Assembly: GCA_030044295.1 (NCBI GenBank)
Contig: JASHWB010000242.1
Coordinates: 1 to 28,758 of the forward strand
DNA from: Candidatus Acidiferrales bacterium
GTDB lineage: Bacteria; Acidobacteriota; Terriglobia; Acidiferrales; UBA7541
Reading direction: 5' to 3'
Length of the DNA stretch: 28,758 bases
Shown here: positions 3,727 to 25,580 of the stretch, piece by piece
How positions within the stretch are numbered: the first letter of the stretch is position 1
Layout: every line of letters starts with the position of its first letter
Made by a program: the position numbers and the translations under genes
Notes under the pieces: model-generated
What the model saw: the letters and a program-made list of their open reading frames with translations, nothing else
Databases searched by the model: none
Told to the model about the DNA's origin: nothing

Positions 3727-3926
3727 TGCTCGAATAACCGCTCAAGAAAACGCACCCAAAGACGTCCTCGCGGAATTAGGGCCGAAATCCCCCGGACAAC
3801 GCTCCAGTGAACGCAGCCGGGCTGTGAGAGATCGTTCTCGACTAGTAACGTTCCGAAACGCAAACGAAGTCTCGGCACGTCTTCGCTTGGCATTGCACAT
3901 TCGACTCCAAACGCTTTCTTCGCAAA

Positions 3927-3956
3927 ATTAGAGAGAACTGCTGAAAATGTGTGCAA
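3927..3956 (-). promoter_or_regulatory. Putative sigma70-type promoter for the priming transferase-wzi unit
   Basis: The minus strand reads TTGCAC (3956-3951), N18, TCTAAT (3932-3927), inside the 352-bp gap of the cluster. Motif match only. Confidence 0.35.
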
Positions 3957-4012
3957 AACGGAGGGTTACTGCGCGCTCAAGACGCTCTATGCTCGGTGAG
4001 AAAATTGAAGGT

Positions 4013-4046
4013 TCCCGAATCGGACCTGCATTGTGCCGAGTCGGGA
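4013..4046 (-). terminator. Putative hairpin/terminator downstream of the export gene
   Basis: Minus strand TCCCGACTCGG-N12-CCGATTCGGGA (11-bp stem, one mismatch), followed by ACCTTCAATTTT, about 30 nt after the stop at 4079. Confidence 0.35.
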
Positions 4047-4078
4047 TGGGGCGAAAGGACGGAAACCGAACGGAGGGT

Positions 4079-6517: not shown

Positions 6518-6552
6518 ATTTCATCCTTCCGAATTCGCGGTTCCGATCACTT
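6487..6552. repeat. 15-bp exact direct repeat CGGTTCCGATCACTT (6487-6501 and 6538-6552) across the wzx/wza junction
   Basis: Read directly from the sequence; period 51 bp. It encodes VIGT in both the Wzx C-terminus and the export-protein N-terminus. Confidence 0.8.
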
Positions 6553-9839: not shown

Positions 9840-10774
9840 TACGCTCCCGAAGACCTCAGTGCGAATCGCCATCGCAGGCGTTTGAGGAAGTACCGCGCGT
9901 ATTCCGGTGAAACCATAGCGATGAGAGCAAAATAGAAGAAGCGCCTTGCAACGCTAGGTTTGGCGAACGCCGCACGTTTTAGAAAACTGGCGATCCTGTA
10001 GCTCGCGGATTCTATCCGGCCTGTCGAAATCGCACGCTCGTATCGCGAACGCGAGAACGTATCAAACCCATACTTTAGCCTCTCCCGATAGAGCCGCTGT
10101 ATGTAGCGGTGAGCCTTCCTCTGCTCTAGAGGTGCCCGGTCGCTGATGCTATTGCTTCGGATGCGCGTGCACATCAGAGGCTCAGGGAGGTTCGCCAACC
10201 GGAACCCGGCTGTCACCGCTCGTAACAGGAAGTCGTAGTCCTCGGCGGGAGTCATATCGCGGTAACCGCCGAGATCGTCGTACACTTCGCGACGGGCCAT
10301 CCAACTGTGCGGGATTGGGGTAGATAGCTCCAAGCACGCGGCGATTGCTTTTGCGCCGATGGGAACTGGCGATTGCCCGACGCGCTCTCCTCTTTCGTTA
10401 ATCGTGATCGTAGGGCTTCCGACCAAAGCGATTTCTGGATGAGACTCGAGAAATTGAAGCTGCTTTTCAAGCCGATGTGGCAGGGCGATATCGTCACCAT
10501 CGATGCGCGCGATGTAGCGCGCCCGGCACGAACGCAAGCCCGTGTTCGAGGCGCGAACGATCCCGGCATTGGTATCGAGTTTGACGGCGGCGACTCGTTC
10601 ATCCGTGGCTGCGATTTGCGCCAAAATGGCGGACGTTCCATCCGTTGACCCGTCGTCGACGACAATCACTTCGATATCGCGCAGGCTCTGCTGCAAAATG
10701 CTGCGCAACGCCTCGGCTATGTAAGGCTCGACGTTGAATGCGGGTAGCAAAACGCTGACTAGAGGTTGAGTCAT
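9839..10774 (-). CDS. GT2 glycosyltransferase
   Basis: VSVLLPAFNVEPYIAEALRSIL, VVDDGSTDGT, ARIDGDD, AEDYDFLLR. ATGA overlap with wzy. Confidence 0.92.
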   Translation of the reverse strand: MTQPLVSVLLPAFNVEPYIAEALRSILQQSLRDIEVIVVDDGSTDGTSAILAQIAATDERVAAVKLDTNAGIVRASNTGLRSCRARYIARIDGDDIALPHRLEKQLQFLESHPEIALVGSPTITINERGERVGQSPVPIGAKAIAACLELSTPIPHSWMARREVYDDLGGYRDMTPAEDYDFLLRAVTAGFRLANLPEPLMCTRIRSNSISDRAPLEQRKAHRYIQRLYRERLKYGFDTFSRSRYERAISTGRIESASYRIASFLKRAAFAKPSVARRFFYFALIAMVSPEYARYFLKRLRWRFALRSSGA

Positions 10775-12012
10775 TGCTGATCCTTAATCGCTCCAAGCAG
10801 CCCCAGCGCTATGTAGAAATAAGGAATAGACGTATCGATTGCGGCGAAGCCTGCGATCAACACGGGAACAAGCAGCAGATATACTGCGCGGCTCGAGCCC
10901 TTCGACAAGAGCCAAACGTAGGCGGCGATCAAAAGCGATCCCAGCAAGCCGAGCTCCAACGCAAGCACGGCGATCACATCGTGAGCAGCGATGCCGAGCA
11001 GACCTTGGGTATTTCCGGAGCCAATCCCGGCGAGCCTTTGCACGATGTCCGCGTTGGAGAAAAGGCCGATCATGCCCTGAAGTATCAGGAATTTGCTCGC
11101 GAGGCTGGGGTCAATCTCGCGGAATGCTTCCGGCCCCGCGGACATGTAGATACGAAGAAGGCAAAAGACGGCGATCGGGCACGTCACAACGAGCGTCGCG
11201 AGAATGAACTTTCGCCGTCGCCACAACTTGTAGATCAAGAATTGACACGCGGCGGCCAAGATGGCGGCGCGCGAAAGAGTAGCCACTATCAGGGCATAAC
11301 CAAGGAAAACCTTCCGGGTACGGATCGAGTTGCGGAAGGAGAGCATGATCGCCGTCAGACACAAAAGCGCGAGTCCGGTATAGTTGGAGTCCGAGAAGAA
11401 GACGCTCATTTTGTAGCGATAGATCCAATCCACGGTTCCCGACGGAAGATCGTTGTACGCTGCGTATAGCGCCGTTCGAACGAACGGGGAAAACGCGTAC
11501 CGGGTCACGCATTCGAGACAAAAGAAAACCAGCAGCGCGTCGACGATCTTCGCGACGTATTTTCCTCTTGTTTGAATATCCAAGCGATTTGCCAGCGAGT
11601 ACGCAACGCAACCGGCTAGCAGAAAAAATGGAAACGCCAGCGGCATGACGTAGTTTTTAGGGTCTGCCTGATTGTGCGTCACAGCGAGAATTTGCAGCAC
11701 TGCGATGCAGACGCAAAGCACGGCGGCACACCCTGTGTTCCAGGACAGTTTCACGTACCCTATGGCGAATATCAGTAGAGATAGTCCGATTAGTAATATC
11801 TGCGTGGAACTCTGAGTGATCCGCTGAGCAACGTTGTGTTGCAAGTTCAGATAGTCGAAGCCAAGAGTCAGCGGTACGAACGAAAGGAGAACGATCACAG
11901 CGAAGATCAGCTTCGCGTTGACGGGGCGATTCAACGTGTCGAGCGCAAGGCTTACGGGGTGCGGGCGTGGCTTCGCCAAAGCCGCATATATTGCTCTGGA
12001 CGCGGTGCTCAC
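10771..12012 (-). CDS. wzy: Probable Wzy polysaccharide polymerase
   Basis: 413 aa with many hydrophobic segments. FFSDSNYTG, LSRAA and a periplasmic loop ending in GIGSGN...AHD...LELG, resembling Wzy_C. GTGA overlap with the upstream gene; lies between the co-polymerase and the GTs. Confidence 0.7.
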   Translation of the reverse strand: MSTASRAIYAALAKPRPHPVSLALDTLNRPVNAKLIFAVIVLLSFVPLTLGFDYLNLQHNVAQRITQSSTQILLIGLSLLIFAIGYVKLSWNTGCAAVLCVCIAVLQILAVTHNQADPKNYVMPLAFPFFLLAGCVAYSLANRLDIQTRGKYVAKIVDALLVFFCLECVTRYAFSPFVRTALYAAYNDLPSGTVDWIYRYKMSVFFSDSNYTGLALLCLTAIMLSFRNSIRTRKVFLGYALIVATLSRAAILAAACQFLIYKLWRRRKFILATLVVTCPIAVFCLLRIYMSAGPEAFREIDPSLASKFLILQGMIGLFSNADIVQRLAGIGSGNTQGLLGIAAHDVIAVLALELGLLGSLLIAAYVWLLSKGSSRAVYLLLVPVLIAGFAAIDTSIPYFYIALGLLGAIKDQQ

Positions 12013-13196
12013 GTCAGGAGCCTCGTCCTAATTTGTTCCGCGCCGTCGGCGACCAGTACCCAAATGCTGGTCAGAAATAGGCCGGAGAAAAACCCGCCGG
12101 AGGCGATTAGCAGGCGCGGCGGACTCGATTTCTTGTCCGGCTTAACGGCCGGATCGACCACCTGAATAACCGATCCCTCTTTCGCTTCGTCGATTTTGGC
12201 CAATTCATATTGCGTTTCTAGGAAACTGAAGATCGTTTCTTCGTATTTGGCGTCACGCAGTCTGCGGGCGTACTCGAGAGCTGCCTGGGGAACCGTGCCC
12301 TTTGGCATCAGTAAGTCCCCCGATCGCGTGTTGGTATCCGCGCCCAACTGCGCGATTTGCTGCTGCAGGGCGGTCAACTCCTGTTCGGCAAGTTGCAAAT
12401 CCGGATTCTCATCGGCCGCAAATTTTCGCATCGCGTCGATCTGAACCTCTTTGGCGGCTATTTGAGAGCGCAAGGCTGCTACGGACTCTATAACTGCGGT
12501 CGCTTGACCTTGCGGTTCGATTAAACCTGTTTGCTGCTCGACTGTTGCGAGTGCCTCTTCCGCGTTGGCCAGCTTGCCGCTTTCTTTCGTGAGTTCCTGC
12601 TCGAAGAAAAGCCGCCTTTGGGCCGCCTCCGAAACGGCGAGCTCACCCGAAAGCTTTCGATAGCTGGCAACGTAGGCGTTCGCCAACTGTGCTGCGCGCT
12701 CAGCGTCCTCATCTGTCACCGAAATGCGTATTAGCCCGTCCTTCAGCCCGCTGTCGATGCTGGTGTTGCGTTCTAATTCCTTACGAGCGTCGGATTCCCG
12801 TTTGTCACCATAGATATCCTGGAGGTTGAACCGCTGAATGAGGGCATCCTCAACGGTACGGCTATCGATCAACGCTACTTGCATGTCGTTGGGGTTCTTA
12901 AGCCCGAGTGTTTGTTGCGCCAGCGAGCCCAGCATCCCCAGGCCGCTGCTCGCCTGAGAAAGCAAAGCCGCTTCCATCGAATGATCCTGCTGGGGTGGCA
13001 GTATTATGGTCGTGGCAGTGTAAAGATTGGGCAGAAGGAATGCCGTCATTACAGCGCATATTGTGAATGCAGCTGTCCCGATCGCGACGGTCCTGCGCCG
13101 TTCGATAAGCAGCCGCAGTAGGTCGATTATGGAAATCTCAGTCTTTGGTTCGGCAGTGCCGATCGTCGATTCATTTCGATTCTCGGAGTCATTCAT
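12009..13196 (-). CDS. Polysaccharide co-polymerase/chain-length determinant (Wzz/GumC-like, no kinase domain)
   Basis: Two TM segments (TVAIGTAAFTICAVMTAFLLPNLYTAT..ILPP; VVDPAVKPDKKSSPPRLLI) flank a long coiled-coil region; no Walker A/B domain. Likely start is the ATG at 13196; the ORF track extends to 13316. Confidence 0.85.
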   Translation of the reverse strand: MNDSENRNESTIGTAEPKTEISIIDLLRLLIERRRTVAIGTAAFTICAVMTAFLLPNLYTATTIILPPQQDHSMEAALLSQASSGLGMLGSLAQQTLGLKNPNDMQVALIDSRTVEDALIQRFNLQDIYGDKRESDARKELERNTSIDSGLKDGLIRISVTDEDAERAAQLANAYVASYRKLSGELAVSEAAQRRLFFEQELTKESGKLANAEEALATVEQQTGLIEPQGQATAVIESVAALRSQIAAKEVQIDAMRKFAADENPDLQLAEQELTALQQQIAQLGADTNTRSGDLLMPKGTVPQAALEYARRLRDAKYEETIFSFLETQYELAKIDEAKEGSVIQVVDPAVKPDKKSSPPRLLIASGGFFSGLFLTSIWVLVADGAEQIRTRLLT

Positions 13197-13577
13197 CTGC
13201 CAGTGATTCGCTTCGAGGGTCAGACTTGCAAGCGGAATGCCGAATATCCTCCGGGTAATGGCCGCTGAGGAGAAACGTGTTACCGGTTTAGCCCCTCGGA
13301 AGCCCAGCTGAAACACTGGTTGATCGTGCTGATCTCTCCCGTAACGGAACTAGTTGGTCGGAAATATGGTTCGTTTTGAACCTCGCACGGCGCCTCACAC
13401 CTCGCATCAAAGAGCCCACCGAGGCCAGCAGTACCTTCGTTCCATCCGCCTGGCAGGAACGGCCTATACAATCCCGCACCCCAGTTCTTCAGAATTTTCA
13501 CTGAACAGGTGTGGCGCGAAGATCGAGAGTGGCCTGTCCATGTTCCGAGATAAAGCTTTCGTGCTCTGAGGGATCCC

Positions 13578-14411
13578 GTGTCGATGCCGTTGGTGGAAGT
13601 CCGCGATCTGTCGGTTAGTTATCACCTGAGCTCGGGTGATCCCTTTGCCGCAGTGCAGGGGGTCTCGTTTCATATCCGGCCGGGAGAAACTCTCGGACTC
13701 ATGGGCGAATCGGGCTGCGGCAAGAGCAGCATTGCCCTAGCGCTGATGCAACTCCTGCCAAAGCGCCAGGCGCGCGTTGCTGGGTCGGTCCTCTTTCGCG
13801 GCGCGAACATGCTCGCGCTTGGCGAGAGGGACCTTCAAACGATTCGCGGTGCGGCAATCTCTATCGTTTATCAGGAACCCGAGATCGCGCTCAGTCCGGT
13901 GATGCGCGTCGGTGATCAAGTAGCCGAAGTCATTCGGGCCCACCGTCCATTGCCGTGGCAACAGTGCCGCTCTTGTGCGCGCGACGTGATCGGCCGCGTG
14001 GGCTTCGCGCAAGTCGAGCGCATTTACAAAGCGTATCCCCATCAATTGAGCGGTGGCCAGCGCCAACGAATTTGCCTTGCCCAAGCCTTGGCTTGCGATC
14101 CCGCACTCCTGATAGCTGACGAGCCTACAGCCCATTTGGACGCCCGCAGCCAGTCGGAGCTTCTCGATGTGTTGCAATCGCTTAAGCGCGATTCTGGGCT
14201 TGCCGTACTTCTCATCAGCCACGCGCCCGAAGTTCAGGAGCGCATGGCAGAGCGCCTGCTTGTTATGAGTGCGGGCCACATCGTGGATCAGGGGCGCTTT
14301 GGCCAACTCGCTGGTAATTCGCACCACCCCTATACCCGCGCGGTTCTTGGTTCGGCGATGCTTCGCGACCGCTGGACCGACCGCGTACTTGAAGAGGCGC
14401 CTGCCGGATGA
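13578..14411 (+). CDS. Peptide/nickel (Opp/Dpp) ABC transporter ATP-binding subunit, OppD-like
   Basis: GESGCGKS, YPHQLSGGQRQR, LIADEPT and HPYT. GAGGGA RBS; GTG 13578 or ATG 13584. Confidence 0.93.
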   Translation: MSMPLVEVRDLSVSYHLSSGDPFAAVQGVSFHIRPGETLGLMGESGCGKSSIALALMQLLPKRQARVAGSVLFRGANMLALGERDLQTIRGAAISIVYQEPEIALSPVMRVGDQVAEVIRAHRPLPWQQCRSCARDVIGRVGFAQVERIYKAYPHQLSGGQRQRICLAQALACDPALLIADEPTAHLDARSQSELLDVLQSLKRDSGLAVLLISHAPEVQERMAERLLVMSAGHIVDQGRFGQLAGNSHHPYTRAVLGSAMLRDRWTDRVLEEAPAG

Positions 14412-15244
14412 CAACCCTCGCGCCGGACACACTCGTCTCTATTCGCGATCTCACCAAAACTTACGTCCAGAGGCGCGCGTTCAGCGGAACTCAATTCACG
14501 ATCGAGGCCCTTCGCGGGTTAAACCTGGAGATCCGCCGCGCCTCCACTCTTGCCCTCGTCGGCGAATCAGGCGCGGGAAAGTCAACGCTGGCGCGTTGCC
14601 TAGGCCTTTTGGAAAGGCCGTCTGCGGGCGAAATCTGGTTTGATCGTGTAAACGTTCTGGCTCTAGATCGCAGGCAGCTATTCCCCGTTCGGCGGCGCAT
14701 CCAGCTCGTTTTCCAGGACCCTGCGTCCGCGCTGAATTCTGGCATGACCGCTGCTGAAATTCTCGAAGAGCCGCTTCTCATCCAGTACGACTTGACGAAA
14801 GCTGAACGCCATCGGCGCGCACTGGATCTGCTGGACGAGGTCGAACTGCCGGCCTCGTCCGCTGAGAAACGCCCGCTCGATTTCAGCGGCGGACAGCGTC
14901 AGCGCCTGGCAATTGCGCGTGCGTTGATGCTCCGCCCCGAGCTCCTAATCCTCGATGAAGCTCTTTCGAATCTCGACCTTGCCACGCGCGATTCCATCGT
15001 AGATCTGCTCGACGCGCTACAAGCCGAGCAGGGGCTCACCTTGGTTCACGTCCTGCACGAGCTCCGCCTGGCGTCCCAACTCGCCTCCGATGTCGCAGTA
15101 ATGTTCGATGGGCAAATTGTCGAGCACGGAAGCGCGGACCGCCTGTTCTCCCGCCCAGAGCATCCCTGCACGCGTGCGCTCCTGCGAGGCTTTCGGAGCA
15201 GCCAGGAAGCGCCCGAAGCCATGCACGTCGAGGCGCTCGGATGA
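14408..15244 (+). CDS. Peptide ABC transporter ATP-binding subunit, OppF-like
   Basis: GESGAGKS, IQLVFQDP, FSGGQRQRLAIARAL, ILDEALSNLD and HPCT. ATGA overlap with the upstream gene. Confidence 0.93.
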   Translation: MTTLAPDTLVSIRDLTKTYVQRRAFSGTQFTIEALRGLNLEIRRASTLALVGESGAGKSTLARCLGLLERPSAGEIWFDRVNVLALDRRQLFPVRRRIQLVFQDPASALNSGMTAAEILEEPLLIQYDLTKAERHRRALDLLDEVELPASSAEKRPLDFSGGQRQRLAIARALMLRPELLILDEALSNLDLATRDSIVDLLDALQAEQGLTLVHVLHELRLASQLASDVAVMFDGQIVEHGSADRLFSRPEHPCTRALLRGFRSSQEAPEAMHVEALG

Positions 15245-16203
15245 AATTCCTCGGCCGGCGTTTACTCCATTCCGGTGTCATCCTGCTCGCGATTTCGTTT
15301 TTCGCTTTTCTCTTGCTCCGGTCCGCTCCCGGCGACTACTTCGATGCCATGCGCATGAACCCACGTGTTTCCGCGGAGACAGTCGAAAATCTCCGCGCGC
15401 AATACGGAATGAACCATTCTTTTCTAGTTCGCTATGCTGATTGGATGGGTTCTCTAGCCAAAGGCGACATGGGCATCTCTTTGGCCTATGGCACCCCTGT
15501 TGGCCCGCTGCTTTGGCCGCGCGCGCGCAACACACTTATGCTGACCGGTTCGGCGATGATTCTTTCATGGATGCTCGCGGTCCCTCTGGGAGTCTGGTCC
15601 GCTGCGGCGAAAGGTGGATGGCTTGATCGCATCTGTTCCTTATTCACTTCCACGCTGCTAGTGATTCCCGACCTTCTTGTTTTTTTGCTCCTGCTTCTGA
15701 TGGCCGTGCGTACCGGATGGCTTCCATCGGGAGGAATGACCTCCGGGAATTTCGCTGACTTGGCTGTATGGCAGAAAGCCGGTGACCTAGCGCTCCACTT
15801 TGCGTTGCCCGCCCTTGGTCTCGCAATCGTTTCGCTGCCGTTATTGCTGCGCCACGTGCGTTCAGCGATGGTTGAGGTTCTGGATTCACCCTTCATCCGC
15901 GCCGCACGAGGGCACGGCATTCCGCGGTCGCGTATCCTCTGGCGCTTTGCTCTTCCGGCCGCATCGAATCCGCTGATTTCGCTTTTTGGGCTGTCCATCG
16001 CCACCATGCTGAGCGCATCGCTGATTGTCGAAGTGATTCTCAGCTGGCCGGGACTGGGCCCCCTGATAATTCAGGCCATTTTGTCTCGCGATCTGAACGT
16101 CGTCATCGGCGTGGTTATGCTCTCATCTGTCTTTCTAATCGCCGGGAATTTGATTGCCGACGTGCTGCTGTTCGTTAGCGATCCGCGGATTCGAGTCGAA
16201 TGA
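15241..16203 (+). CDS. Peptide ABC transporter permease, OppB-like
   Basis: LRSAPGD, GDMGISL, EAA-loop region (PFIRAARGHGIPRSRILWRFAL), VEVILSWPGLG and ADVLLFVSDPRIR. ATGA overlap. Confidence 0.93.
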   Translation: MKFLGRRLLHSGVILLAISFFAFLLLRSAPGDYFDAMRMNPRVSAETVENLRAQYGMNHSFLVRYADWMGSLAKGDMGISLAYGTPVGPLLWPRARNTLMLTGSAMILSWMLAVPLGVWSAAAKGGWLDRICSLFTSTLLVIPDLLVFLLLLLMAVRTGWLPSGGMTSGNFADLAVWQKAGDLALHFALPALGLAIVSLPLLLRHVRSAMVEVLDSPFIRAARGHGIPRSRILWRFALPAASNPLISLFGLSIATMLSASLIVEVILSWPGLGPLIIQAILSRDLNVVIGVVMLSSVFLIAGNLIADVLLFVSDPRIRVE

Positions 16204-16204
16204 A

Positions 16205-17236
16205 ATGAATCGCCGCTACACATTTTGGGGTGTGGTTATCCTGCTCGCCGCTTTTCATCTCGTCATTCTGTCTGCTGGTTTCTTCTCTCCGTACAGCTAC
16301 TCGGAGCAGCATCGCGATTTGCCTTACGCCCCGCCGTCCCGAATTCACTTCATCGACTCACAAGGCCATTTTCACGTTCGCCCGTTCGTATACGGCTGGA
16401 AGTACGACGCCCACTCGCCTGGCTCATACGTCGCCGATCTGGCAACGCCCTATCCGGTTCACGTGTTCGCCTTCGGTTCGGCCTACAAAATCGCCGGTCT
16501 GATTCCTTCGCGCATTCACTTGTTCGGTGTAGACCCGCCTGGATCCATCTTCCTGATGGGCACGGACGGCTACGGCCGCGATCAATTCACGCGCTTCCTC
16601 TATGGCGGGCAGATTTCGCTGGCTGCCGGGCTGATTGCCGCGGCGCTATCGCTGGCCTTGGGGCTCGTCGTTGGCTCGATCGCGGGATTCTACGGCGGCT
16701 GGCTTGATAACGCGCTGATGCGCGGTGGCGATGTCTTTATGGCACTGCCGTGGCTCTATCTGCTGTTCGCGGTTCGCGCGGCGCTGCCTCTTCACGTGCC
16801 GCAAGGCCAGATTTTCTTGCTCATCGTCGCGGTGATTGGATTAATCGGCTGGGCCAGGCCCGCCCGCCTGATCCGAGGAGTGGTGCTAAGCGCGAAGGAG
16901 CGCAATTTCGTTCTGGCGGCGCGCGGCTTTGGGGCCTCCGATTTTCACCTCCTCCGCCGCCACATTCTGCCGCGCACCTACAACATCGTCCTCACTCAAA
17001 TGACGTTGCTCATTCCCCAGTACATACTTGCCGAAGTGACATTGAGCTTCCTCGGCCTCGGTATCGGTCAGCCGCTTCCGAGCTGGGGCAGCCTTTTGTC
17101 CGCGTTGCAGGAGTACTACGTTTTGGCTTCTTACTGGTGGATGTACTTGCCCGCCATCCTGTTAGTTCCTGTTTTTCTCGCTTATTCCCAAATCGCCAAT
17201 GCCTTGCAGGAACTCTTTTCACCCGTCGCGCTGTAA
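16205..17236 (+). CDS. Peptide ABC transporter permease, OppC-like
   Basis: MGTDGYGRDQFTRFLYGGQISL, WARPARLIRG, FVLAARGFGAS, RHILP, AEVTLSFLGLG and PSWG. Start refined to the ATG at 16205, 1 nt after the upstream stop. Confidence 0.93.
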   Translation: MNRRYTFWGVVILLAAFHLVILSAGFFSPYSYSEQHRDLPYAPPSRIHFIDSQGHFHVRPFVYGWKYDAHSPGSYVADLATPYPVHVFAFGSAYKIAGLIPSRIHLFGVDPPGSIFLMGTDGYGRDQFTRFLYGGQISLAAGLIAAALSLALGLVVGSIAGFYGGWLDNALMRGGDVFMALPWLYLLFAVRAALPLHVPQGQIFLLIVAVIGLIGWARPARLIRGVVLSAKERNFVLAARGFGASDFHLLRRHILPRTYNIVLTQMTLLIPQYILAEVTLSFLGLGIGQPLPSWGSLLSALQEYYVLASYWWMYLPAILLVPVFLAYSQIANALQELFSPVAL

Positions 17237-17266: not shown

Positions 17267-19006
17267 ATGCGCCCGATCGCGTTCTCACGCACCGCCGCGG
17301 CCGTTTGCGTGCTTTTAGCTGCCGCGGCGCTTTCGGTGCTGGCTCAGCCGGCGCAGAATGCCTCGCCCGCCCAGCAGGCAATTGGCAAGCGCGGCGGCAC
17401 TCTTACGGTCGCGCTCCGTTCCGAGCCCAAAACCCTCAATCCCGCTCTTGCCACTGACCAATCATCTCAGGACGTGATCTATTGCATGAACGCCGATCTG
17501 ATTCACATCAATCGCCTGTCCCAGCGAACCGAGCCCGACCTTGCCGAGTCCTGGACCGTCTCACGTGACGGCAAAGCGTACACGCTGCATCTCCGCCGGG
17601 GCTTGCGCTTTTCCGACGGCCAACCATTTACAGCCGACGACGTCGTTTTCAGCTTCCGCGTCTACCTTGACGATAAAGTCGGATCGCCTCAGCGCGATCT
17701 CTTAATCATTGGCGGAAAGCCACTCTCCGTCCAGAAGATCGACTCCTACACCGTGCGTTTCGTCCTCTCTCAACCGTATGCCGCTGCTGAGCGCCTGTTC
17801 GATGGCTTTCCCATTCTCCCGCGCCATTTGCTCGAAAGAGCATACCGTAGCGGCGACTTCTCGAAATCCTGGACGGTTTCGAGTGCGCCCAGCCAGCTCG
17901 CCGGAATGGGCCCTTTTCGTCTCGCTGAATACGTTCCTGGTCAGCGCATCGTCCTGGACCGCAATCCATACTACTGGAAACGTGACGGCGCCGGTCAGCA
18001 GCTGCCCTATCTTGATAAATTGGTTTTTCTCTTCGTGCCGAGCGAGGACGCACAGGTAATTCGTTTTCTGTCCGGCGATACGGACGTACTCAGCCGCTTC
18101 AGCTCCGAGAACTATTCGGTCCTCAAGGCCCAAGCGGCCGTCAAGCGTTTTCACCTGGACGATCTCGGCCCTAGCCTCGAATACAACTTTCTCTTCTTTA
18201 ATCTCAACGATTTGCGCGGCAAGAATCTTCCGCAGATCGCCGAGAAACAAAGCTGGTTTCGCGACCTTCCCTTCCGCCAGGCCGTCTCCCAGGCGATCGA
18301 CCGCACCGCTATCGTTCGCCTCGTCTATCAAGGTCGCGCGGCAGCCCTTGCCGCACAAGTGACCCCTGGAAACAAGCTCTGGCTAGATCCCGCGATTCAA
18401 CCCCCGGTTCAATCCATCGATCGCGCCCGGCAACTTCTCAAATCCGCCGGATTTTCGTGGCGTTCGGATGGCTCGCTCGTTGATTCGCGTGGAAAGTCCG
18501 TCGAATTTTCCATCCTTACCAGTTCCTCGAACGCGCAGCGCACCAAGATTGCCACTCTGATCCAAAGCGATCTGAGCGCGCTTGGAATGAATGTTCACGT
18601 TGTCTCGCTTGATTTCGGAGCCATGGTCGACCGCCTGCTCAATTCCTTCGACTACGAAGCCGCCATCATGGGCCTTGCGGATGGCGACGCCGATCCCAAC
18701 ACGGAAATGAATGTCTGGCTTTCCTCTGGTGGCATGCACATCTGGCACTTGAACGAAACCGGGCCGGCGAATCCTTGGGAGTCGGACCTCGATCATCTGA
18801 TGAACCAGCAACTCGTCACGCTCGATTACGCTAAGCGGCGCCGGCTATACGACCAGGTGCAGCAAATTGTGGCGCGGCAGCTGCCCATCATTTGCCTGGC
18901 CAGTCCGGACGTCCTCGTCGGCGCGAAAGATCGCGTCGGCAATTTCAGTCCGGCAATCCTCGAACCCTACGTGCTCTGGAACGTAGATCGAATCTATGGC
19001 CACTGA
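17267..19006 (+). CDS. Family 5 (OppA/DppA-like) ABC substrate-binding protein, Sec-exported with no lipobox
   Basis: Signal peptide ending LSVLA|Q. EPKTLNP, LAESWTVS, LRRGLRFSDGQPFTADDVVFS, GMGPFRL, RNPYYWK and FRQAVSQAIDR. Confidence 0.93.
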   Translation: MRPIAFSRTAAAVCVLLAAAALSVLAQPAQNASPAQQAIGKRGGTLTVALRSEPKTLNPALATDQSSQDVIYCMNADLIHINRLSQRTEPDLAESWTVSRDGKAYTLHLRRGLRFSDGQPFTADDVVFSFRVYLDDKVGSPQRDLLIIGGKPLSVQKIDSYTVRFVLSQPYAAAERLFDGFPILPRHLLERAYRSGDFSKSWTVSSAPSQLAGMGPFRLAEYVPGQRIVLDRNPYYWKRDGAGQQLPYLDKLVFLFVPSEDAQVIRFLSGDTDVLSRFSSENYSVLKAQAAVKRFHLDDLGPSLEYNFLFFNLNDLRGKNLPQIAEKQSWFRDLPFRQAVSQAIDRTAIVRLVYQGRAAALAAQVTPGNKLWLDPAIQPPVQSIDRARQLLKSAGFSWRSDGSLVDSRGKSVEFSILTSSSNAQRTKIATLIQSDLSALGMNVHVVSLDFGAMVDRLLNSFDYEAAIMGLADGDADPNTEMNVWLSSGGMHIWHLNETGPANPWESDLDHLMNQQLVTLDYAKRRRLYDQVQQIVARQLPIICLASPDVLVGAKDRVGNFSPAILEPYVLWNVDRIYGH

Positions 19007-19607
19007 GACGACTCTCGCTCCTGCTGAATCGCCGCAGCCAAAAAGCCTGCGAGACGACGCGGAGCTCGTTCGCGAGTGCCTCCGCGGCAACCAGGACGCC
19101 TGGTCCGCGGTCATCGAGAAATATAAAAATCTCATCTATTCCGTGCCCGTCAAATACGGCTTCTCGCCTGACGACGCGACCGACATTTTTCAGGCTGTCT
19201 GCCTCGAAATGCTTTCGGAACTCCCGAAGCTGCGCAAGCCGAAAGCGCTGCCGAAGTGGATCATCCAAGTTACCGTACACAAATGTTTTCACCACAAGCG
19301 CCAGCTTCTGCGCGTCAGCACCGCGGGATCGTCCGAAGATATGACCGAAAACGTGGTCGAGCGCAGCACATCTCCAGTTGCTGAGATGATCTTGCGCGAG
19401 GCCGAAGAAGAGCAGAGTTTCCGCAACGCGATCGCCAGCCTGGCTCCGCGCTGTCAACGCCTCATCCACATGCTCTTCTTTGAAGAACCCGCGCGTCCGT
19501 ACCAGGAAATCGCTGCTGAGCTTGGCTTGGCTCCAGGATCGATCGGCTTCATTCGTCAGCGTTGTCTGGATAAGCTGCGCACGAAACTGGAGCAGGCGGG
19601 TTTCTAG
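18996..19607 (+). CDS. ECF sigma-70 factor, resembling group ECF54
   Basis: Region 2 DAWSAVIEKYKNLIYSV...DATDIFQAVCL...ALPKWI; region 4 LAPRCQRLIHML...YQEIAAELGLAPGSIGFIRQRCLDKLR. The CQRL and GSIG..R.RCL.KLR signature plus the CHAT/subtilase neighbourhood match what I recall of ECF54; the group assignment needs an HMM check. Confidence 0.9.
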   Translation: MATETTLAPAESPQPKSLRDDAELVRECLRGNQDAWSAVIEKYKNLIYSVPVKYGFSPDDATDIFQAVCLEMLSELPKLRKPKALPKWIIQVTVHKCFHHKRQLLRVSTAGSSEDMTENVVERSTSPVAEMILREAEEEQSFRNAIASLAPRCQRLIHMLFFEEPARPYQEIAAELGLAPGSIGFIRQRCLDKLRTKLEQAGF

Positions 19608-22474
19608 TGGGCGCTGCCGCAAAAAAGAAGGCGATTTCTGCTGCCGTCTTGCGAAAGCTCGGATCGTTTACAGACGATGCCAGTCGCGAGCGCTATCTTA
19701 AAAGCCGCCCGGAACTTCTGCGGAAGGCTGCTGCTCTTCAGCTGAACGAACTCGTGCGCTCGAAGCTGCGCGCCGATACGCGTCAGGCTCTTTCCCTTGC
19801 CGAGTCCGCAATTGCCATCGCGCGGCGCGTCCGCAGCCGAGAGGCCTTGGCGCGGAGCCTTCGTTCGAAAGCAAATGCACTCTACATGCTCGGAGAAAAC
19901 AAAGGTGCGCTGGATTTTCACGCCGAGGCGCTGCGGATCTTCCGAGAGCTCGCCGACGGTCGCGAGCAGGCACGCACGCTGATCCCGACAATTCAGCCGC
20001 TGATCCTGCTGGGCGAATATCAACGCGCTTTCGATGTCGCGGCGGAAGCAAAACACATTCTGGAGCAGATCGGAGACGCGCAGCGCCTCGGCCATCTCGA
20101 AATCAACATAGGCAACATCTACCATCGCCAGGACCGTTTCGAGGAAGCTCTCGCGTGCTACGAGCGCTCTTACGAATCCCTGTTACCCTTCCGTGACTCG
20201 GAAGGCCTCGCCGTCGCCCTCTACAACATGGCCGTCTGCCTGATTTCGCTCAACGACTTTCCGCGCGCACTCGCCTCATATCAGCGCGCCCGCGAAATGT
20301 GCGTCCAGCATGGCATGACGCTTCTCGTCATTCAGGCGGACTACAACATCGCCTATCTCTACTATCTCCGCGGCGAATACAGCCGCGCCATTGAGATGTT
20401 GCGCGCCACACGGCAGAAATCCGAGGAAAATGGTGACGCACACATCCTCGCGCTTTGCTATCTCGATCTCTCGGACATTTATCTCGAACTCAATCTCAGC
20501 GCCGAAGCTCGCGAAGTCGCTCACGAAGGCTGGGAACGTTTCAGAAAGCTCGGAATGGGTTACGAAGAGGCGAAATGCCAGGCCAACGAAGCCATGGCGC
20601 TCAGCCAGCTCGGCAAAGCCATCCACGCTCTCGAGTTGTTCGATCGTGCGCGGGCCAAGTTTGTTCAAGAAAAGAATCTCGTCTGGCCTTGGCTGATCGA
20701 CTTATATCGCGCGCTGGTTCTGTTCAACGAAGGGCGCTATTTCGAGGCCCGCCGTTTTTGCGATCAGGCCGCAAAGTTCTTCGACACGTCGAATCTTCCT
20801 AACAAAGCTGTCTTATGCCATTTGCTGCTCGCCCGGCTGTCTTTTCGCACTGCCGACCTTTCGACGGCAAAAGATGAATGCGCGCGCGCTGGCGAGCGCC
20901 TTTCCGCGGTCGAAACTCCCTCCCTGCGCTTTCAAGCTGAATTTCTTGCTGGACAAGTTGCCGAAGCTTCCGGTTCGCTTCCCGATGCGTACCAGTCATT
21001 CCAGCGCGCCCGCGAAGCGCTCGAAACCCTTCGCAGCAGTCTTCATGGCGAAGAGCTGAAAATCTCGTTCATGAAGAATAGGCTCGAAGTATACGAATGC
21101 CTCGTCGACATCTGCACGAAGCGCCCGCAGACATCGGACGCGGCCGGAGAAACGTTCAGCTACATGGAAATGGCCAAATCGCGCAGCTTGGCGGAGCTCC
21201 TGGTTCACCACGCGCAGGCCTTGCCCGAGGCTCCGTCCGGACAGAGTGGTCTCGTTCGTAAAATTCGCGAAATGCGCGAGGAATTGAATTGGTATTATCG
21301 GCGGCTCGAAATCGAACAGTTGCAGACGGAAATGCCGTCTCCCGAACGCATCGAGGCATTGCGCCAAAAAGCAGCTGCTCATGAAACCAATCTTCTTCGC
21401 GCCCTTCGCGAGCTGCCTCAAGCAGAAATCGGCAGTCCAGACGTCGCGCCCGAGTCCATCCAGAGCATTCGTGGTGCGCTGTCCCAGGGAGCTGCTCTGA
21501 TCGAGTATTTCAGCGCGAAAGGCCATTTCCTGGCCGCCGTCCTCACGCATAGCTCGCTCGAAATCGTGCCTCTCACGCCGGTTTCGCGAATCGTTAGCCT
21601 GATGCGGATGCTGGAGTTCCAAATTTCAAAGTTCCGTCTCGGCGGCGACTACACACGCCAGTTTGAAAAGACGCTTTTGGAAGCCGCCCGGGCGCATCTC
21701 CGCAATCTCTTCGTCGAGATCTTCGCCCCATTACGCTCGCGGCTTTCTGCTGCGGATTTGATCGTCATTCCGCATGGCGTTCTGCACTACTTGCCGTTTC
21801 AGGCCTTGCTCGATGGGGATCGCTATCTGATCGACGATTTCTCGATCGCTTATGCGCCGAGTGCCGCAACATTCGCTCTTTGCCAGAGGAATTCCAGTGA
21901 ATGTGATGGCCCACCGCTCGTTCTGGGAATCCCTGACGCGCAAGCGCCGTTCATCGACGATGAAGTCCGGGCAATCGCCAAAATCTTACCCGGTGCCACC
22001 TTGCTGCTCGGACGCGAAGCCAACGAGGCGAACCTCCGTGCGCAAGGTCGCGGCAGCCGGGCGATTCACATCGCCACGCACGGTACGTTTCGTCAGGACA
22101 ATCCCATGTTTTCCAGCATTCGCCTCGGCGAAGGAAATCTGGCGTTGTACGACCTTTATCAGCTCAAGTTGGATTGTGAGTTGATGACCCTCAGCGGTTG
22201 CGCAACCGGCCTCAACGTCGTCACCGCCGGCGATGAACTTCTGGGCCTCGTTCGCGGTCTTCTTTTCGCCGGAGCTCGCTCGCTTTTGCTTTCGCTTTGG
22301 GACGTACACGATCGCACTACAGCGGACTTTATGACCGTCTTCTATGAACGGCTTGGTTCGGCGAGGTCTAAACCAACGGCGCTGCAACAAGCCATGATCG
22401 AGATGCGTGACCGCCACCCGCACCCTTACTTCTGGGCTCCGTTTACCCTCACTGGCAAGATCAGCGTCCCCTAA
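19607..22474 (+). CDS. TPR-CHAT protein: N-terminal TPR-like helical repeats plus C-terminal caspase-like CHAT protease domain
   Basis: 955 aa. Repeated TPR-like units (KANALYMLG..ALDFH; IGNIYHRQDRFEEALACYE; MAVCLISLNDFPRALASYQ; IAYLYYLRGEYSRAIE). CHAT motifs LIVIPHGVLHYLPF, IHIATHG (His825), LMTLSGC (Cys865), LSLWDVHD and HPYFWAPF. GTG overlaps the sigma stop by 1 nt. Confidence 0.93.
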   Translation: MGAAAKKKAISAAVLRKLGSFTDDASRERYLKSRPELLRKAAALQLNELVRSKLRADTRQALSLAESAIAIARRVRSREALARSLRSKANALYMLGENKGALDFHAEALRIFRELADGREQARTLIPTIQPLILLGEYQRAFDVAAEAKHILEQIGDAQRLGHLEINIGNIYHRQDRFEEALACYERSYESLLPFRDSEGLAVALYNMAVCLISLNDFPRALASYQRAREMCVQHGMTLLVIQADYNIAYLYYLRGEYSRAIEMLRATRQKSEENGDAHILALCYLDLSDIYLELNLSAEAREVAHEGWERFRKLGMGYEEAKCQANEAMALSQLGKAIHALELFDRARAKFVQEKNLVWPWLIDLYRALVLFNEGRYFEARRFCDQAAKFFDTSNLPNKAVLCHLLLARLSFRTADLSTAKDECARAGERLSAVETPSLRFQAEFLAGQVAEASGSLPDAYQSFQRAREALETLRSSLHGEELKISFMKNRLEVYECLVDICTKRPQTSDAAGETFSYMEMAKSRSLAELLVHHAQALPEAPSGQSGLVRKIREMREELNWYYRRLEIEQLQTEMPSPERIEALRQKAAAHETNLLRALRELPQAEIGSPDVAPESIQSIRGALSQGAALIEYFSAKGHFLAAVLTHSSLEIVPLTPVSRIVSLMRMLEFQISKFRLGGDYTRQFEKTLLEAARAHLRNLFVEIFAPLRSRLSAADLIVIPHGVLHYLPFQALLDGDRYLIDDFSIAYAPSAATFALCQRNSSECDGPPLVLGIPDAQAPFIDDEVRAIAKILPGATLLLGREANEANLRAQGRGSRAIHIATHGTFRQDNPMFSSIRLGEGNLALYDLYQLKLDCELMTLSGCATGLNVVTAGDELLGLVRGLLFAGARSLLLSLWDVHDRTTADFMTVFYERLGSARSKPTALQQAMIEMRDRHPHPYFWAPFTLTGKISVP

Positions 22475-22605
22475 CTCGCAACTAAAAATTCCGGGTTCTG
22501 GCTATATTTTTCGGTCGCCTACGTACCCTTATGGACAGGCGTGGATGGTAGGGGCAGGAGCGGCCTTTCTTGGATCGGCCGCAATTTATGGCATGGGGAG
22601 AGGAA

Positions 22606-23310
22606 ATGCGACATTTTTCGTCAGAGCGATGGGCAGGCTACGTTAGGAAGACATTGAAACCAAAGGACATGCAGGAAATGCAGGTTCACCTTCAAACGGG
22701 ATGTCGGGAGTGCGAAGCCGATCTAGCTGCTTGGATGCACATCAAAGAAATGGCCGCTCGTGAGAAGGCGTACCAGCCGCCAGCTGCGGCCGTGAAGATG
22801 GCCAAGGCGGCGTCGAAGCTCCACGGCGAACCTGCGCGACCATCAATTGCCAGACTCCTCTTCGACAGCTTTCACACACCGGTTGTCGCCGGTGTTCGCT
22901 CATCTCCCACCTCCGGCCAGCCCCGACAAGTGCTCTACGGGTTCGATAAGTATCGCGTGGACTTGCGCTTCGAGCCGAATTTCAACGCGGACGAGGTCCT
23001 CCTGGTTGGCCAAGTTTTGAACACTGCGGAATCCACCGAGAGTCTGGGACCAATCACGATTGCCTTAACGCGTGGTGGGCAAGTCCTCGGAACCGCGCGA
23101 ACCAACGAATTCGGCGAATTTCAGCTGGAATGCGATCTAGGCGGGCGCCTTGAGCTGCAACTTACGTTGCCAGGTGGTGCCACCGTGAAGATACCCATGG
23201 TTGAGCCTTCCGCCAGCCACGACGCCAAGGAACCCTCGCAACCCGCTGTTGCTAAAAGACTTGCTTCAAGGCTTAAGGCAAAGAAAAAAAGTACTAGGAA
23301 GAAGGTCTAG
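22606..23310 (+). CDS. Soluble putative anti-sigma factor: N-terminal zinc-binding (ZAS/zf-HC2-like) motif plus C-terminal carboxypeptidase-regulatory-like beta-sandwich
   Basis: GGAGAGG RBS before ATG 22606 (ORF track starts at 22570). H3-x24-H28-x4-C33-x2-C36 (HLQTGCREC). Linker LLFDSF..AGVRS; beta-rich RQVLY..VDLRF..LVGQV..TNEFGEF. No TM segment. Confidence 0.7.
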   Translation: MRHFSSERWAGYVRKTLKPKDMQEMQVHLQTGCRECEADLAAWMHIKEMAAREKAYQPPAAAVKMAKAASKLHGEPARPSIARLLFDSFHTPVVAGVRSSPTSGQPRQVLYGFDKYRVDLRFEPNFNADEVLLVGQVLNTAESTESLGPITIALTRGGQVLGTARTNEFGEFQLECDLGGRLELQLTLPGGATVKIPMVEPSASHDAKEPSQPAVAKRLASRLKAKKKSTRKKV

Positions 23311-23327: not shown

Positions 23328-24809
23328 ATGGCCTCGCGTACCATGGAGAGAACAACTTCACCGAGCGATTCTCTCTCTTCATTTAGTTCACAAACGGGAA
23401 AGGGACCACTCGCGATTATGAAACGTCTTAGTTGCCTAATCGTTTTATTCCTTGCATTTACCGCTCGCCCCGTGAAAGCCCAGGGCCTGCTTGGCGGCCT
23501 GCTCGGAGGAGTCACTCAGACCCTTTCGAACACGGTGGGCGGCGTCACAAACCTTGTCGGTGATTTGCTCAGCCCTCCGCAGACCGTAATCGTCCAGACC
23601 ACCCTTGGTCTCTCGGGGTTGCAGCGCGAGTGCCAACTGAACGGCTGCACCGTCGTGCGAGGCCTGGATGGCGTGGAAGGCCAGGTGTTTCTCGTTCAGC
23701 CACAGCAGGGTCTGCTTCCAGATGTCCTTGCCGGTGTGCTGCGGCTCCTGACGGGTATTCTCGACGCCGAGCCGGATCAGCTCGTAATCATTCCGCCCAA
23801 CATCAGCTCTGGCGCGGTCCAGACCACAGTCCCGTCGAACTTATACCAAGAGACGCCCGTCAGCTACTATGGCAGCACCGTCTGGTACGGATACGCCTAT
23901 CAGCCCGCAGCGTCGATCATTCAGTCCGCTCAAGCGCAGAGAGCTTTCCACGTGACTGGCAACGCAATCGTCGCCGACATCGATACCGGCGTTGATCCCA
24001 ATCATCCGGCGCTGAAGCCGTTCTTGCTCACCGGATACAACTTCATAACCAATCAGCCTGGCGCTTCGGAATTGACTGACTTAAACGGTGCGACCGGCTC
24101 GGCCTGCAGTAGCTGCCAGGCCGCCTTCGTCGATCAGCACACTGCTGCAATGCTCGATCAGCACACTGCGGCGATGCTCGACGGATCCCAATATGCCGAT
24201 TTCGGACACGGCACGGAAGTTCTGGGAATGGTCCATCTGGTTGCTCCTACAGCCAAGCTGCTGCCCCTGAAGGCATTCAACTCCGACGGCAGCGGCGATC
24301 TCTCAAACATCCTGGCGGCGCTTTATTACGCCGTCCAGAATCACGCCAACGTCATCAATATGAGTTTTGAGCTTTCGTCCAGTTCGACCGCTCTGACCAA
24401 CGCGATCAACTACGCCAACGCTAACTCGGTGACTTTGGTCGCGTCTGCGGGCAACGACGGACAGGACGAAATGGTCTATCCGGCTGGCCTGTCGAACGTG
24501 ATCGGCGTCGCTTCAACGAATGATTACGACCAGCGGTCGAGCTTCTCGAACTACGGCGACCAGGTGGTTTGGGTTGCCGCGCCGGGCGAAAACGTCGTAA
24601 CAACGTATCCATTCGGCACGTATTCAGTGACGTCTGGCACGTCATTTACTTCGCCAATGGTTGCCGGCACAGCGGCGTTGCTGCTGAACCTCCAACCGAA
24701 CTTGAGTCCTTCTGCCGTAGCGAAGGCCATCTCGAACGCGCAGTGGATTGGACCCAATATGGGCTACGGCGAGCTCAACGTCGATTGGGCGCTCCAGTCG
24801 CTCTACTAG
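23328..24809 (+). CDS. Secreted S8 subtilisin-like serine protease (pre-pro form)
   Basis: Catalytic Asp in IDTG (23982), His in HGT (24207), oxyanion Asn in ASAGNDG, Ser in SGTSF (24642). Signal peptide MKRLSCLIVLFLAFTARPVKA from ATG 23418; the upstream ATG 23328 has an AAGGAG RBS. Confidence 0.93.
   Translation: MASRTMERTTSPSDSLSSFSSQTGKGPLAIMKRLSCLIVLFLAFTARPVKAQGLLGGLLGGVTQTLSNTVGGVTNLVGDLLSPPQTVIVQTTLGLSGLQRECQLNGCTVVRGLDGVEGQVFLVQPQQGLLPDVLAGVLRLLTGILDAEPDQLVIIPPNISSGAVQTTVPSNLYQETPVSYYGSTVWYGYAYQPAASIIQSAQAQRAFHVTGNAIVADIDTGVDPNHPALKPFLLTGYNFITNQPGASELTDLNGATGSACSSCQAAFVDQHTAAMLDQHTAAMLDGSQYADFGHGTEVLGMVHLVAPTAKLLPLKAFNSDGSGDLSNILAALYYAVQNHANVINMSFELSSSSTALTNAINYANANSVTLVASAGNDGQDEMVYPAGLSNVIGVASTNDYDQRSSFSNYGDQVVWVAAPGENVVTTYPFGTYSVTSGTSFTSPMVAGTAALLLNLQPNLSPSAVAKAISNAQWIGPNMGYGELNVDWALQSLY
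24132..24179 (+). repeat. In-frame 24-bp tandem repeat (2 copies) encoding DQHTAAML-DQHTAAML inside the S8 catalytic domain
   Basis: GATCAGCACACTGCTGCAATGCTC / GATCAGCACACTGCGGCGATGCTC: two differences, both synonymous Ala codons. Followed by a third Asp (GAC). Confidence 0.95.
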
Positions 24810-24824
24810 AAAAATAAGTTGACG

Positions 24825-25580
24825 ATGGGTACGATCGCACGCATCGCGGAGAAGGAACTCGGGACAGGTCGCCACGGCGATCTGTCCCTTCCTTTCGATT
24901 CGCCCTGGCGAGTCGCTGCTTCGCAATCCGGTTCCACTGACTCTGGCACCGCTCCTCTGCAACTGAAGGTGGCGCAAGAGGAAATCTCCGCCCTGCGCAC
25001 AGCCGTGGTTTGCTCGCTCAACCAGCTGCTCGACCTAAAAGACTTGAATACGGGCGTTCATAGCACGCGGCTGGCTGAATGGGCGCTTCATGTGGCGGGC
25101 GAAATTGGCCTCGACGAAACGGCGTTTCCAGACATCGAGGTCGCGGCGTTGCTTCACGACATCGGCAAGATTGGCATCCCGGATGCGATCCTAAACAAGC
25201 CAGGTCGCCTGACTGGCGACGAGTACGATCTGATGAAAAAACATCCGGAATACGGTTGGATCGTGCTGCGCAGCTTGCCGGGATTCGAGCGCGTCAGCCT
25301 GCTGATCCTGCACCACCACGAAAGTTTCGACGGCAAAGGCTATCCAGGCGGTTTGGCCGGTGACGAAATTCCCATGGGCTCGCGCATCGTCTCGGTCATC
25401 GACGCATTTGATGCCATGGTTTCGTCACGCCCCTACCGGCAAGGCCTGCCGCTCGAAGAAGCAACGCGCAGGCTGATCCAAGCGAGTGGGACGCAATTCG
25501 ATCCGCGCGTTGTGGAACGCTTCCTGCCGCTGGCGCAGGCCGAAATGCCATCCGTTCTCGCAGCCGTCGGCGCAGGGTAG
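24825..25580 (+). CDS. Stand-alone HD-GYP domain phosphodiesterase (cyclic dinucleotide, probably c-di-GMP)
   Basis: TGVHSTRL, LLHDIGKIGIPDAILNKPGRLT, KHPEYG, HHHESFDGKGYP, RIVSVIDAFDAM and RPYR. ATG 24825 (TTG 24819 in frame), 15 nt after the S8 stop. Confidence 0.92.
   Translation: MGTIARIAEKELGTGRHGDLSLPFDSPWRVAASQSGSTDSGTAPLQLKVAQEEISALRTAVVCSLNQLLDLKDLNTGVHSTRLAEWALHVAGEIGLDETAFPDIEVAALLHDIGKIGIPDAILNKPGRLTGDEYDLMKKHPEYGWIVLRSLPGFERVSLLILHHHESFDGKGYPGGLAGDEIPMGSRIVSVIDAFDAMVSSRPYRQGLPLEEATRRLIQASGTQFDPRVVERFLPLAQAEMPSVLAAVGAG

Follow-up and report, generated by a model that had tools for sequence, protein, structure and literature searches.

Peptide signalling that relies on an intracellular tetratricopeptide repeat (TPR) receptor is seen as characteristic of Bacillota and their phages, and S8 proteases mature the Phr peptides. 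RRNPPA quorum sensing of Bacillota comprises Rap-Phr, NprR-NprX, PlcR-PapR and PrgX, and includes tandemly duplicated Phr propeptides (PMC11343458; PMC9765709). The stretch of DNA analysed here, referred to as the window, is 28,758 nucleotides long and comes from a Candidatus Acidiferrales bacterium of the Acidobacteriota (GenBank assembly GCA_030044295.1, contig JASHWB010000242.1, positions 1 to 28,758, forward strand). It encodes an S8 subtilase that carries a tandem octapeptide between two of its catalytic residues. The subtilase gene is the ninth of ten co-directional genes, which encode, in order, two ABC ATPases, two permeases, an SBP_bac_5 solute-binding protein (SBP5), a sigma factor of the extracytoplasmic function (ECF) type, a TPR-CHAT protease, a protein of 246 amino acids, the S8 subtilase and an HD-GYP protein. 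We favour, with measured confidence, the reading in which the repeated octapeptide serves as signal cargo in a conserved cassette for peptide sensing.

The cassette resembles RRNPPA systems in several respects. Judging from its genes, a short unmodified peptide would be made outside the cell, imported by an Opp-type transporter and sensed by a TPR receptor in the cytoplasm; specificity types arise as peptide and receptor diversify jointly, and some precursors are multi-copy. The TPR protein has no signal peptide and contains a groove segment that co-varies with the peptide. In contrast to RRNPPA receptors, its output is a CHAT caspase-like protease and not a helix-turn-helix domain or a Rap-type phosphatase, and its nearest TPR folds are of the LGN/OGT type. 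The peptides lie inside the catalytic domain of a 493-residue protease, not in a small propeptide gene, and the hosts are diderm, either Acidobacteriota or Dormiibacterota. By analogy, the cassette may work like an RRNPPA system; its output domain, the lack of a separate propeptide gene and its host range set it outside that family.

A second comparison is with Craspase of type III-E CRISPR, in which the TPR-CHAT protease Csx29 cleaves Csx30 and thereby releases or controls an ECF sigma factor, as CalpL, CalpT and CalpS do likewise. The window encodes a TPR-CHAT protein whose His/Cys dyad is intact, with an ECF sigma factor and a small partner protein encoded next to it, and the shared logic would be a protease that frees a sigma factor in the cytoplasm (for context on Craspase and CalpL-type systems, see PMC11506125; 10.1101/2023.06.23.546230). 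The proposed trigger, however, is a peptide in the TPR groove and not an RNA-guided effector. No Cas family was detected among the 21 window open reading frames scanned against Pfam, and Tandem Repeats Finder reported no CRISPR-like array in the window. Tandem identical units with uniform junctions and an associated subtilase also recall yeast alpha-factor/Kex2 and the cyanobactin system PatE/PatA/PatG. Here, in contrast, precursor and subtilase are one polypeptide, the units lie between the catalytic Asp and His, and modification enzymes are absent.

An earlier note on this stretch, made from the sequence alone, had described a DQHTAAML tandem pair just before the catalytic His of the subtilase, with the two copies differing only at synonymous sites and with a CxxC ahead of them. 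All three observations hold. The features concerned are the following, in window coordinates.

23328..24809, + strand: S8 subtilase gene, encoding a predicted pre-pro-enzyme (493 amino acids as the longest open reading frame; Pfam PF00082)
24105..24116, + strand: clade-specific CxxC (Cys260, Cys263), located in the loop's upstream part
24111..24134, + strand: degenerate leading unit SCQAAFVD, which provides the first hydrophobic-Val-Asp junction
24135..24158, + strand: octapeptide unit 1, QHTAAMLD (24132-24155 in the DQHTAAML register of the earlier note)
24159..24182, + strand: octapeptide unit 2, QHTAAMLD (24156-24179 in the DQHTAAML register)

The pair DQHTAAML-DQHTAAML occupies residues 269-284 (24132-24179) and ends nine residues ahead of the catalytic His294. 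The stretch 24099-24209 encodes residues 258-294, from SACSSC through the FGH of the catalytic His motif, with the order CxxC, two DQHTAAML copies, DGSQYADFG and His294 towards the end of the interval. Tandem Repeats Finder reports the repeat at 24130-24181 (period 24 nt, 2.2 copies, 92% matches, score 90). Between the copies at 24132-24155 and 24156-24179, the sole differences are silent ones in two Ala codons (GCT GCA vs GCG GCG). The interval from Asp219 to His294 measures 75 residues, compared with 32 in subtilisin BPN'.

The repeat is maintained at the amino-acid level. All 120 closest homologues drawn from a collection of 5.8 billion proteins (64-83% identity, mostly labelled Candidatus Acidiferrales or Acidoferrum) carry DQHTAAML, 115 with two copies and five with three, and the peptide varies among them only by Asp/Asn at the first residue and by three single substitutions. 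At the DNA level, the copies in 20 genome loci show scrambled codon choice at silent positions. Across 22 loci, the 45 QHTAAMLD units are written in 44 different DNA versions and encode one and the same peptide. Codon differences amount to 3.7 of 8 between copies in one gene and to 3.8-4.1 between genes. Because silent divergence within a gene matches that between genes, the codon pattern argues that the duplication is old and that purifying selection acts on the amino-acid sequence of each copy. An origin of the identical copies by gene conversion is ruled out, since the within-gene codon differences equal those between genes.

An exhaustive profile search of 1.84 billion cluster representatives places the window protein in a large S8 subfamily, in which octads that follow the pattern Q-[S/H/E]-[T/S]-x-x-[I/V/M]-[L/V]-[D/E/N], numbering from one to about 12, lie between the catalytic Asp and His, commonly as two pairs flanking a short linker. 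At least two units are present in 105 of 151 proteins (150 representatives and the window protein), with copy numbers from 2 to 10 or more, and units share 7.1 of 8 residues inside a protein against 4.5 of 8 between proteins. In a phylum-wide genome search, four of 401 genomes matched at E <= 1e-50 (three candidates scored per genome); metagenome loci took its place in the comparisons that follow. The earlier note had asked whether, among homologous S8 proteins, copy number varies while the copies inside each protein stay identical. Both hold, with silent sites scrambled meanwhile and with two to three copies in this clade and one to about 12 in the subfamily.

The register of the repeat can be read from the edges of the arrays. 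In 136 of 138 tandem arrays, the last core is followed by the residue that also stands at the inner eighth position, whereas the residue ahead of the first Gln agrees with that position in only 23 of 138. For this reason the evolutionary unit is Q-x-x-x-x-phi-phi-[D/E/N] (phi, hydrophobic), here QHTAAMLD, with Gln first and an acidic or amide residue last. A hydrophobic-[Leu/Val]-[Asn/Asp] motif precedes the arrays, with Leu/Val two residues before in 120 of 138 and Asn/Asp just before in 103 of 138, so that n units come with n+1 uniform junctions, a pattern to be expected of processing sites. Tandem identical units with uniform junctions, the hallmark of a multi-copy precursor, are thus found at the sequence level.

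These patterns bear on two simpler accounts of the loop. The insert could be a purely structural or stabilising surface element of this S8 subfamily, devoid of a signalling role; insertions in the Asp-to-His loop of subtilases are common, and the loop is partly modelled as strand and helix. Such an element, however, would not need exact copies that change in lockstep, and neither a copy number of one to about 12 nor covariation with a protein of another compartment would be expected of it, which makes this account very improbable. The second account takes the CxxC and the two repeat His residues, which show C-x2-C-x7-H-x7-H spacing in the window protein, as a Cys2His2 metal site. Cluster-linked relatives nevertheless combine a CxxC with His-free units (QSTAAVL) or contain no Cys, and the predicted export of the protein favours a disulfide. 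This hardly tenable assignment was ruled out, as the His and the Cys are each dispensable in relatives. The CxxC is missing from many cluster-linked relatives, including those of the SEWLDV type; being clade-specific in this way, it is accessory.

The strongest indication of a partner for the peptide comes from covariation within the cassette. For 41 non-redundant loci with full-length TPR-CHAT, protein distance was compared with peptide Hamming distance over all locus pairs by partial correlation, controlled for the mean distance of the other proteins. The TPR region (residues 1-690) gives 0.41, the S8 core 0.22, SBP5 0.06, HD-GYP 0.02, the ECF sigma factor -0.01, the 246-residue protein -0.10 and the CHAT domain -0.18. 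In 40-residue sliding windows the signal peaks at 0.46-0.63 in TPR-CHAT 141-260 and continues at 0.35-0.36 to residue 300. Comparable values elsewhere occur only in the S8 windows that hold the peptide (0.65-0.73), and all other windows, in every protein, stay at or below 0.31. With the QHTAAML clade removed, the TPR signal is still 0.34-0.55.

The same segment behaves differently according to peptide type. At equal divergence of the remaining protein, the ratio of TPR 141-300 to this remainder is about 0.6 in same-peptide pairs, in which the segment is more conserved than the rest, and 1.0-1.5 in different-peptide pairs, in which it is more diverged. The loci L056 (QSSAAVL) and L058 (QSSVAIL) illustrate this: they differ by 8% outside the TPR segment and by 31% inside it. 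Their DNA is 80-88% identical across the cassette despite the different peptide types. Among the places where identity drops most sharply are the TPR segment and, 3.5 kb away from it, the S8 loop; lesser drops fall at gene ends and in intergenic stretches. These islands of divergence form a pherotype-like pattern. The earlier note had proposed to check whether the repeat sequence co-varies with the TPR domain and with the OppA-like protein of the same operon; the first part is upheld, localised to TPR-CHAT 141-300 and with residue-level matches, whereas the second is not clearly so. SBP5 as the co-varying receptor is unconvincing, with the low overall value given above and a few windows near 0.3, and its flat signal fits a sequence-tolerant OppA without being positive evidence for one. 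Separately, SBP5 residues 161, 292 and 416 separate peptide traits perfectly, but with heterogeneous residue sets, and may reflect chance or a weak specificity signal.

At the level of single residues, about 2550 alignment columns in six proteins were considered, and only three to eight of them separate each of four peptide traits perfectly. Leaving the peptide columns aside, each trait has exactly one perfect TPR-CHAT column, and all four of these fall within 141-300. Phylogenetic contrasts were counted on a tree of TPR-CHAT residues 301-955, from which the segment is excluded, and 13 of 13 independent contrasts agree. The segment and its four matches (peptide positions in the Gln-first register) are as follows.

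20027..20506, + strand: TPR-CHAT residues 141-300, the segment co-varying with peptide type (I166, V210, I280, Y285; ladder N167/N170, N207, N247, D287)
Peptide position 6, Ile vs Val/Met: TPR-CHAT 166 Asn/Ser vs Ile, 5/5 contrasts
Peptide position 2, His, Ser, Arg or Gln: TPR-CHAT 280 Ile/Val, His, Gln or Arg, one-to-one, 3/3 contrasts
Peptide position 3, Ser: TPR-CHAT 210 Ile/Met, 3/3 contrasts
Peptide position 4, Val: TPR-CHAT 285 Asp/Asn, 2/2 contrasts

An AlphaFold2 (AF2) model of TPR-CHAT 61-430 (predicted local distance difference test, pLDDT, 96.5) is a regular array of 40-residue helix-turn-helix repeats. The four specificity positions sit in alternate helices (residues 158-174, 198-214 and 278-294). 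Invariant Asn207, Asn247 and Asp287 recur at a 40-residue period in helices 198-214, 238-254 and 278-294, and helix 158-174 carries Asn167 and Asn170. The nearest solved folds are the TPR domain of LGN/Pins with Inscuteable, NuMA and Frmpd4, and the TPR domain of OGT. In LGN/Pins and OGT, extended peptides are bound along the inner TPR groove by an Asn ladder. The 40-residue TPR superhelix and the Asn ladder in alternate helices are shared with these domains, which differ in being eukaryotic scaffold or enzyme domains with 16-18% identity and without a protease fusion. A complex prediction for TPR 60-420 with the 33-residue S8 loop 258-290 scored 0.02 and is taken as evidence neither way.

The modest S8 core correlation with peptide type raises the question of whether the repeats instead address the subtilase itself, as a pseudo-substrate or bait (an autoinhibitory plug or autolysis sites that time activation), with the TPR covariation arising indirectly. 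The units end in Ala-Ala-Met-Leu, which resembles the P4-P1 preferences of subtilisin, and the loop adjoins the active-site His. Yet Phe347, which aligns to the pocket residue Leu126, is nearly invariant while the peptide varies, and no S8 window outside the loop exceeds 0.38. The sole S8 column outside the loop that separates the traits perfectly, residue 341, aligns in our own mapping to a surface position of BPN'. A bait would also leave unexplained why a remote TPR groove follows the peptide position by position, and we consider it rather improbable. A resemblance between the propeptide cleavage region and the repeat was likewise considered and rejected: GILDAEPDQ is what normally forms the last strand in an I9 propeptide, and it does not follow peptide type.

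The genes that accompany the subtilase are conserved with it. They are listed below.

13578..17236, + strand: two ABC ATPases and two permeases of a peptide-type importer (Pfam ABC_tran, BPD_transp_1)
17267..19006, + strand: OppA/DppA-type solute-binding protein (SBP5) with a signal peptide (Pfam SBP_bac_5, E = 1.5e-86)
18996..19607, + strand: ECF sigma factor (Pfam Sigma70_r2 and r4)
19607..22474, + strand: TPR-CHAT protease, 955 amino acids, without a signal peptide (Pfam CHAT, E = 3e-60, and TPR families)
22570..23310, + strand: 246-residue anti-sigma-like protein with a Cys/His motif and a beta-sandwich; conserved position between TPR-CHAT and S8
24819..25580, + strand: HD-GYP protein, downstream of S8 (Pfam HD_5, E = 3e-41)

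SBP5, ECF, TPR-CHAT, the 246-residue protein, S8 and HD-GYP occur in unchanged order in 18 of 20 genome loci, one of which is labelled Candidatus Dormiibacterota and has the units NQSSAAIL/DQSSAAIL. In 80 metagenome loci the complete cluster is found again, combined with at least 11 peptide types, and the ABC importer genes are conserved in loci that have enough flank. Where at least 4.8 kb is available upstream of S8 (44 loci), TPR-CHAT is the directly upstream gene in 36, and the rest are solo paralogues. Besides the solo copy on contig L043 described below, eight solo S8 paralogues, of the CxxC type, lack an adjacent TPR-CHAT. The CHAT dyad His825/Cys865 is invariant in a 40-sequence TPR-CHAT alignment. 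The 246-residue protein belongs to no firm family, its only match being a weak CarboxypepD_reg-like one (E = 0.006), and it is the fastest-evolving member of the cassette (29-64% identity); its anti-sigma-like role is putative. Read from the N-termini, S8 and SBP5 have signal peptides, and TPR-CHAT, the sigma factor and the 246-residue protein have none.

This distribution of signal peptides is central to the principal alternative, in which the TPR domain reads the repeat on the intact S8 polypeptide, as a substrate, anchor or decoy of TPR-CHAT, without a free peptide or import. Covariation indicates recognition and leaves the form of the ligand undecided, and LGN-type TPR folds have often been solved with larger partner proteins, both of which agree with this alternative. 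S8, however, has a signal peptide and a predicted propeptide whereas TPR-CHAT has neither, so separate compartments are expected, and the operon conserves all parts of a peptide-type ABC importer. Repeated identical units bounded by uniform junctions also suit a multi-copy precursor better than a docking site. Recognition of the intact precursor is disfavoured by the compartment mismatch and the conserved importer, and we regard it as unlikely.

For the signal-cargo reading, we infer a sequence of export, excision, import, binding, CHAT activation and sigma release. The subtilase would be made as a pre-pro-enzyme and then exported. Its Asp-to-His loop would offer two exact QHTAAML(D) copies and a degenerate leading copy, each bounded by hydrophobic-[Leu/Val]-[Asp/Asn], and cutting at these junctions, by S8 itself or by another protease, would yield 7-8-residue peptides of identical sequence. 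Cleavage after Leu/Val would suit all n+1 junctions; cleavage before Gln would release units that are exactly identical, possibly with a pyroGlu N-terminus. The Opp-type ABC importer encoded alongside would then bring the peptides into the cytoplasm, where they may bind the concave TPR groove (~141-300) of TPR-CHAT, and ligand binding would switch the caspase-like CHAT domain. The likely substrate of this domain is the neighbouring anti-sigma-like protein, cleavage of which would free the ECF sigma factor. Release, import and TPR binding are suggested because the copies are identical under selection, the junctions are uniform, the carrier is predicted to be exported, the importer is conserved and the groove tracks the peptide. 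The action of CHAT on the anti-sigma-like protein is suggested by analogy with Craspase Csx29/Csx30 and with CalpL/CalpT. The complete circuit, in which diderm soil bacteria (Acidobacteriota and a Dormiibacterota relative) would combine a subtilase-stored peptide, Opp import, TPR-CHAT readout, anti-sigma cutting, a freed ECF sigma factor and pherotypes, is put forward tentatively, as possible rather than probable.

Several points weigh against the signal-cargo reading. Cleavage inside the Asp-to-His interval would nick the core of the enzyme, and the loop, with a pLDDT of 62-80 in the S8 model and partly formed of strand and helix, is not plainly disordered. SBP5 shows no overall covariation with the peptide. 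The groove exposure of TPR-CHAT residues 166, 210, 280 and 285 is predicted from helix register alone. The comparison draws on about 41 loci, and each position has two to five independent contrasts; with five pairs, the lowest attainable p is 0.06 per site, and the sites were chosen after the data had been seen.

The covariation nevertheless points to a peptide-signalling circuit of which a full-text literature search found no description. If the proposed circuit is correct, soil Acidobacteriota, which are abundant and hard to culture, would own a system analogous to that of Bacillota and independently built. The storage of a signal inside the catalytic domain of an enzyme would be unprecedented, as would an output in the form of a caspase-like protease acting on a sigma/anti-sigma pair, and CRISPR-independent TPR-CHAT proteases would gain a ligand. 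The analysis provides concrete hypotheses, namely the peptide QHTAAML(D), the receptor segment and four specificity pairs (e.g. position 6 Met/Val to Ile with Ile166 to Asn).

The carrier itself is predicted to be a secreted subtilase. Its remaining features are the following.

23418..23483, + strand: signal-peptide-like N-terminus of S8, translation MKRLSCLIVLFLAFTARPVKAQ
23586..23792, + strand: I9-like propeptide, residues ~87-155, beta-alpha-beta-beta-alpha-beta (AF2 secondary structure, pLDDT >95; Foldseek)
23982..23984, + strand: catalytic Asp219, DIDTG motif, nearly invariant in the 105-sequence alignment
24207..24209, + strand: catalytic His294, FGHGT motif, invariant in the 105-sequence alignment
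24453..24455, + strand: oxyanion Asn376, nearly invariant column
24642..24644, + strand: catalytic Ser439, GTSF, nearly invariant column

Membership of the S8 family is indicated by the Peptidase_S8 profile match (PF00082, E = 1e-37, 130 bits vs a cut-off of 21.8), by conservation of D219, H294, N376 and S439, and by the subtilisin fold of the model. The protein falls short of the NCBIfam curated cut-offs for mycosin (136 vs 279 bits), QhpE (98 vs 165) and PatA/PatG (78 vs 421). The true start is probably Met31 at 23418, because many homologues are 457-470 residues long and align from about residue 30. The segment that follows this start would be a signal peptide, as suggested by its hydrophobic core and AxA-like end. 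The AF2 model of S8, built on 105 sequences, has a mean pLDDT of 84.8, and its best Foldseek matches are unautoprocessed pro-subtilisin E and pro-Tk-subtilisin (template modelling score up to 0.92 by target). Pfam gives no match in residues 1-215, whereas model residues 87-155 match pro-subtilisin E and pro-Tk-subtilisin.

The metagenome contig L043 carries two octad-bearing S8 genes (L043:8055 and L043:10385), one in the cluster and one after HD-GYP, both with QSTAAVL. In one metagenome-assembled genome (L019:5084-7523), a permease gene leads straight into S8 at residue 233. This locus keeps one QHTAAML unit and is missing the SBP5, ECF, TPR-CHAT and 246-residue protein genes, an arrangement that could be either a deletion or an assembly join.

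An exopolysaccharide or capsule cluster transcribed divergently from the cassette (1302-13316, - strand) lies directly upstream of it and contains a Wzz/GNVR chain-length protein, four glycosyltransferases, a Poly_export/SLBB exporter, a sugar transferase and Wzi. A conserved link between this cluster and the cassette was not found, the Wzz-like gene being 0.5 Mb away on the contig of the L009 relative, and three other relatives that were searched showed no adjacency of the cassette to a Wzz-like gene. From these contigs, the adjacency looks local. At the other end of the cassette, a strong 12-bp stem-loop followed by a T-rich tail (24861-24888, + strand) lies just past the S8 stop, within the annotated 5' end of HD-GYP. 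Most HD-GYP homologues align only from about residue 47, and the stem-loop may serve as an intergenic terminator or attenuator separating the two genes.

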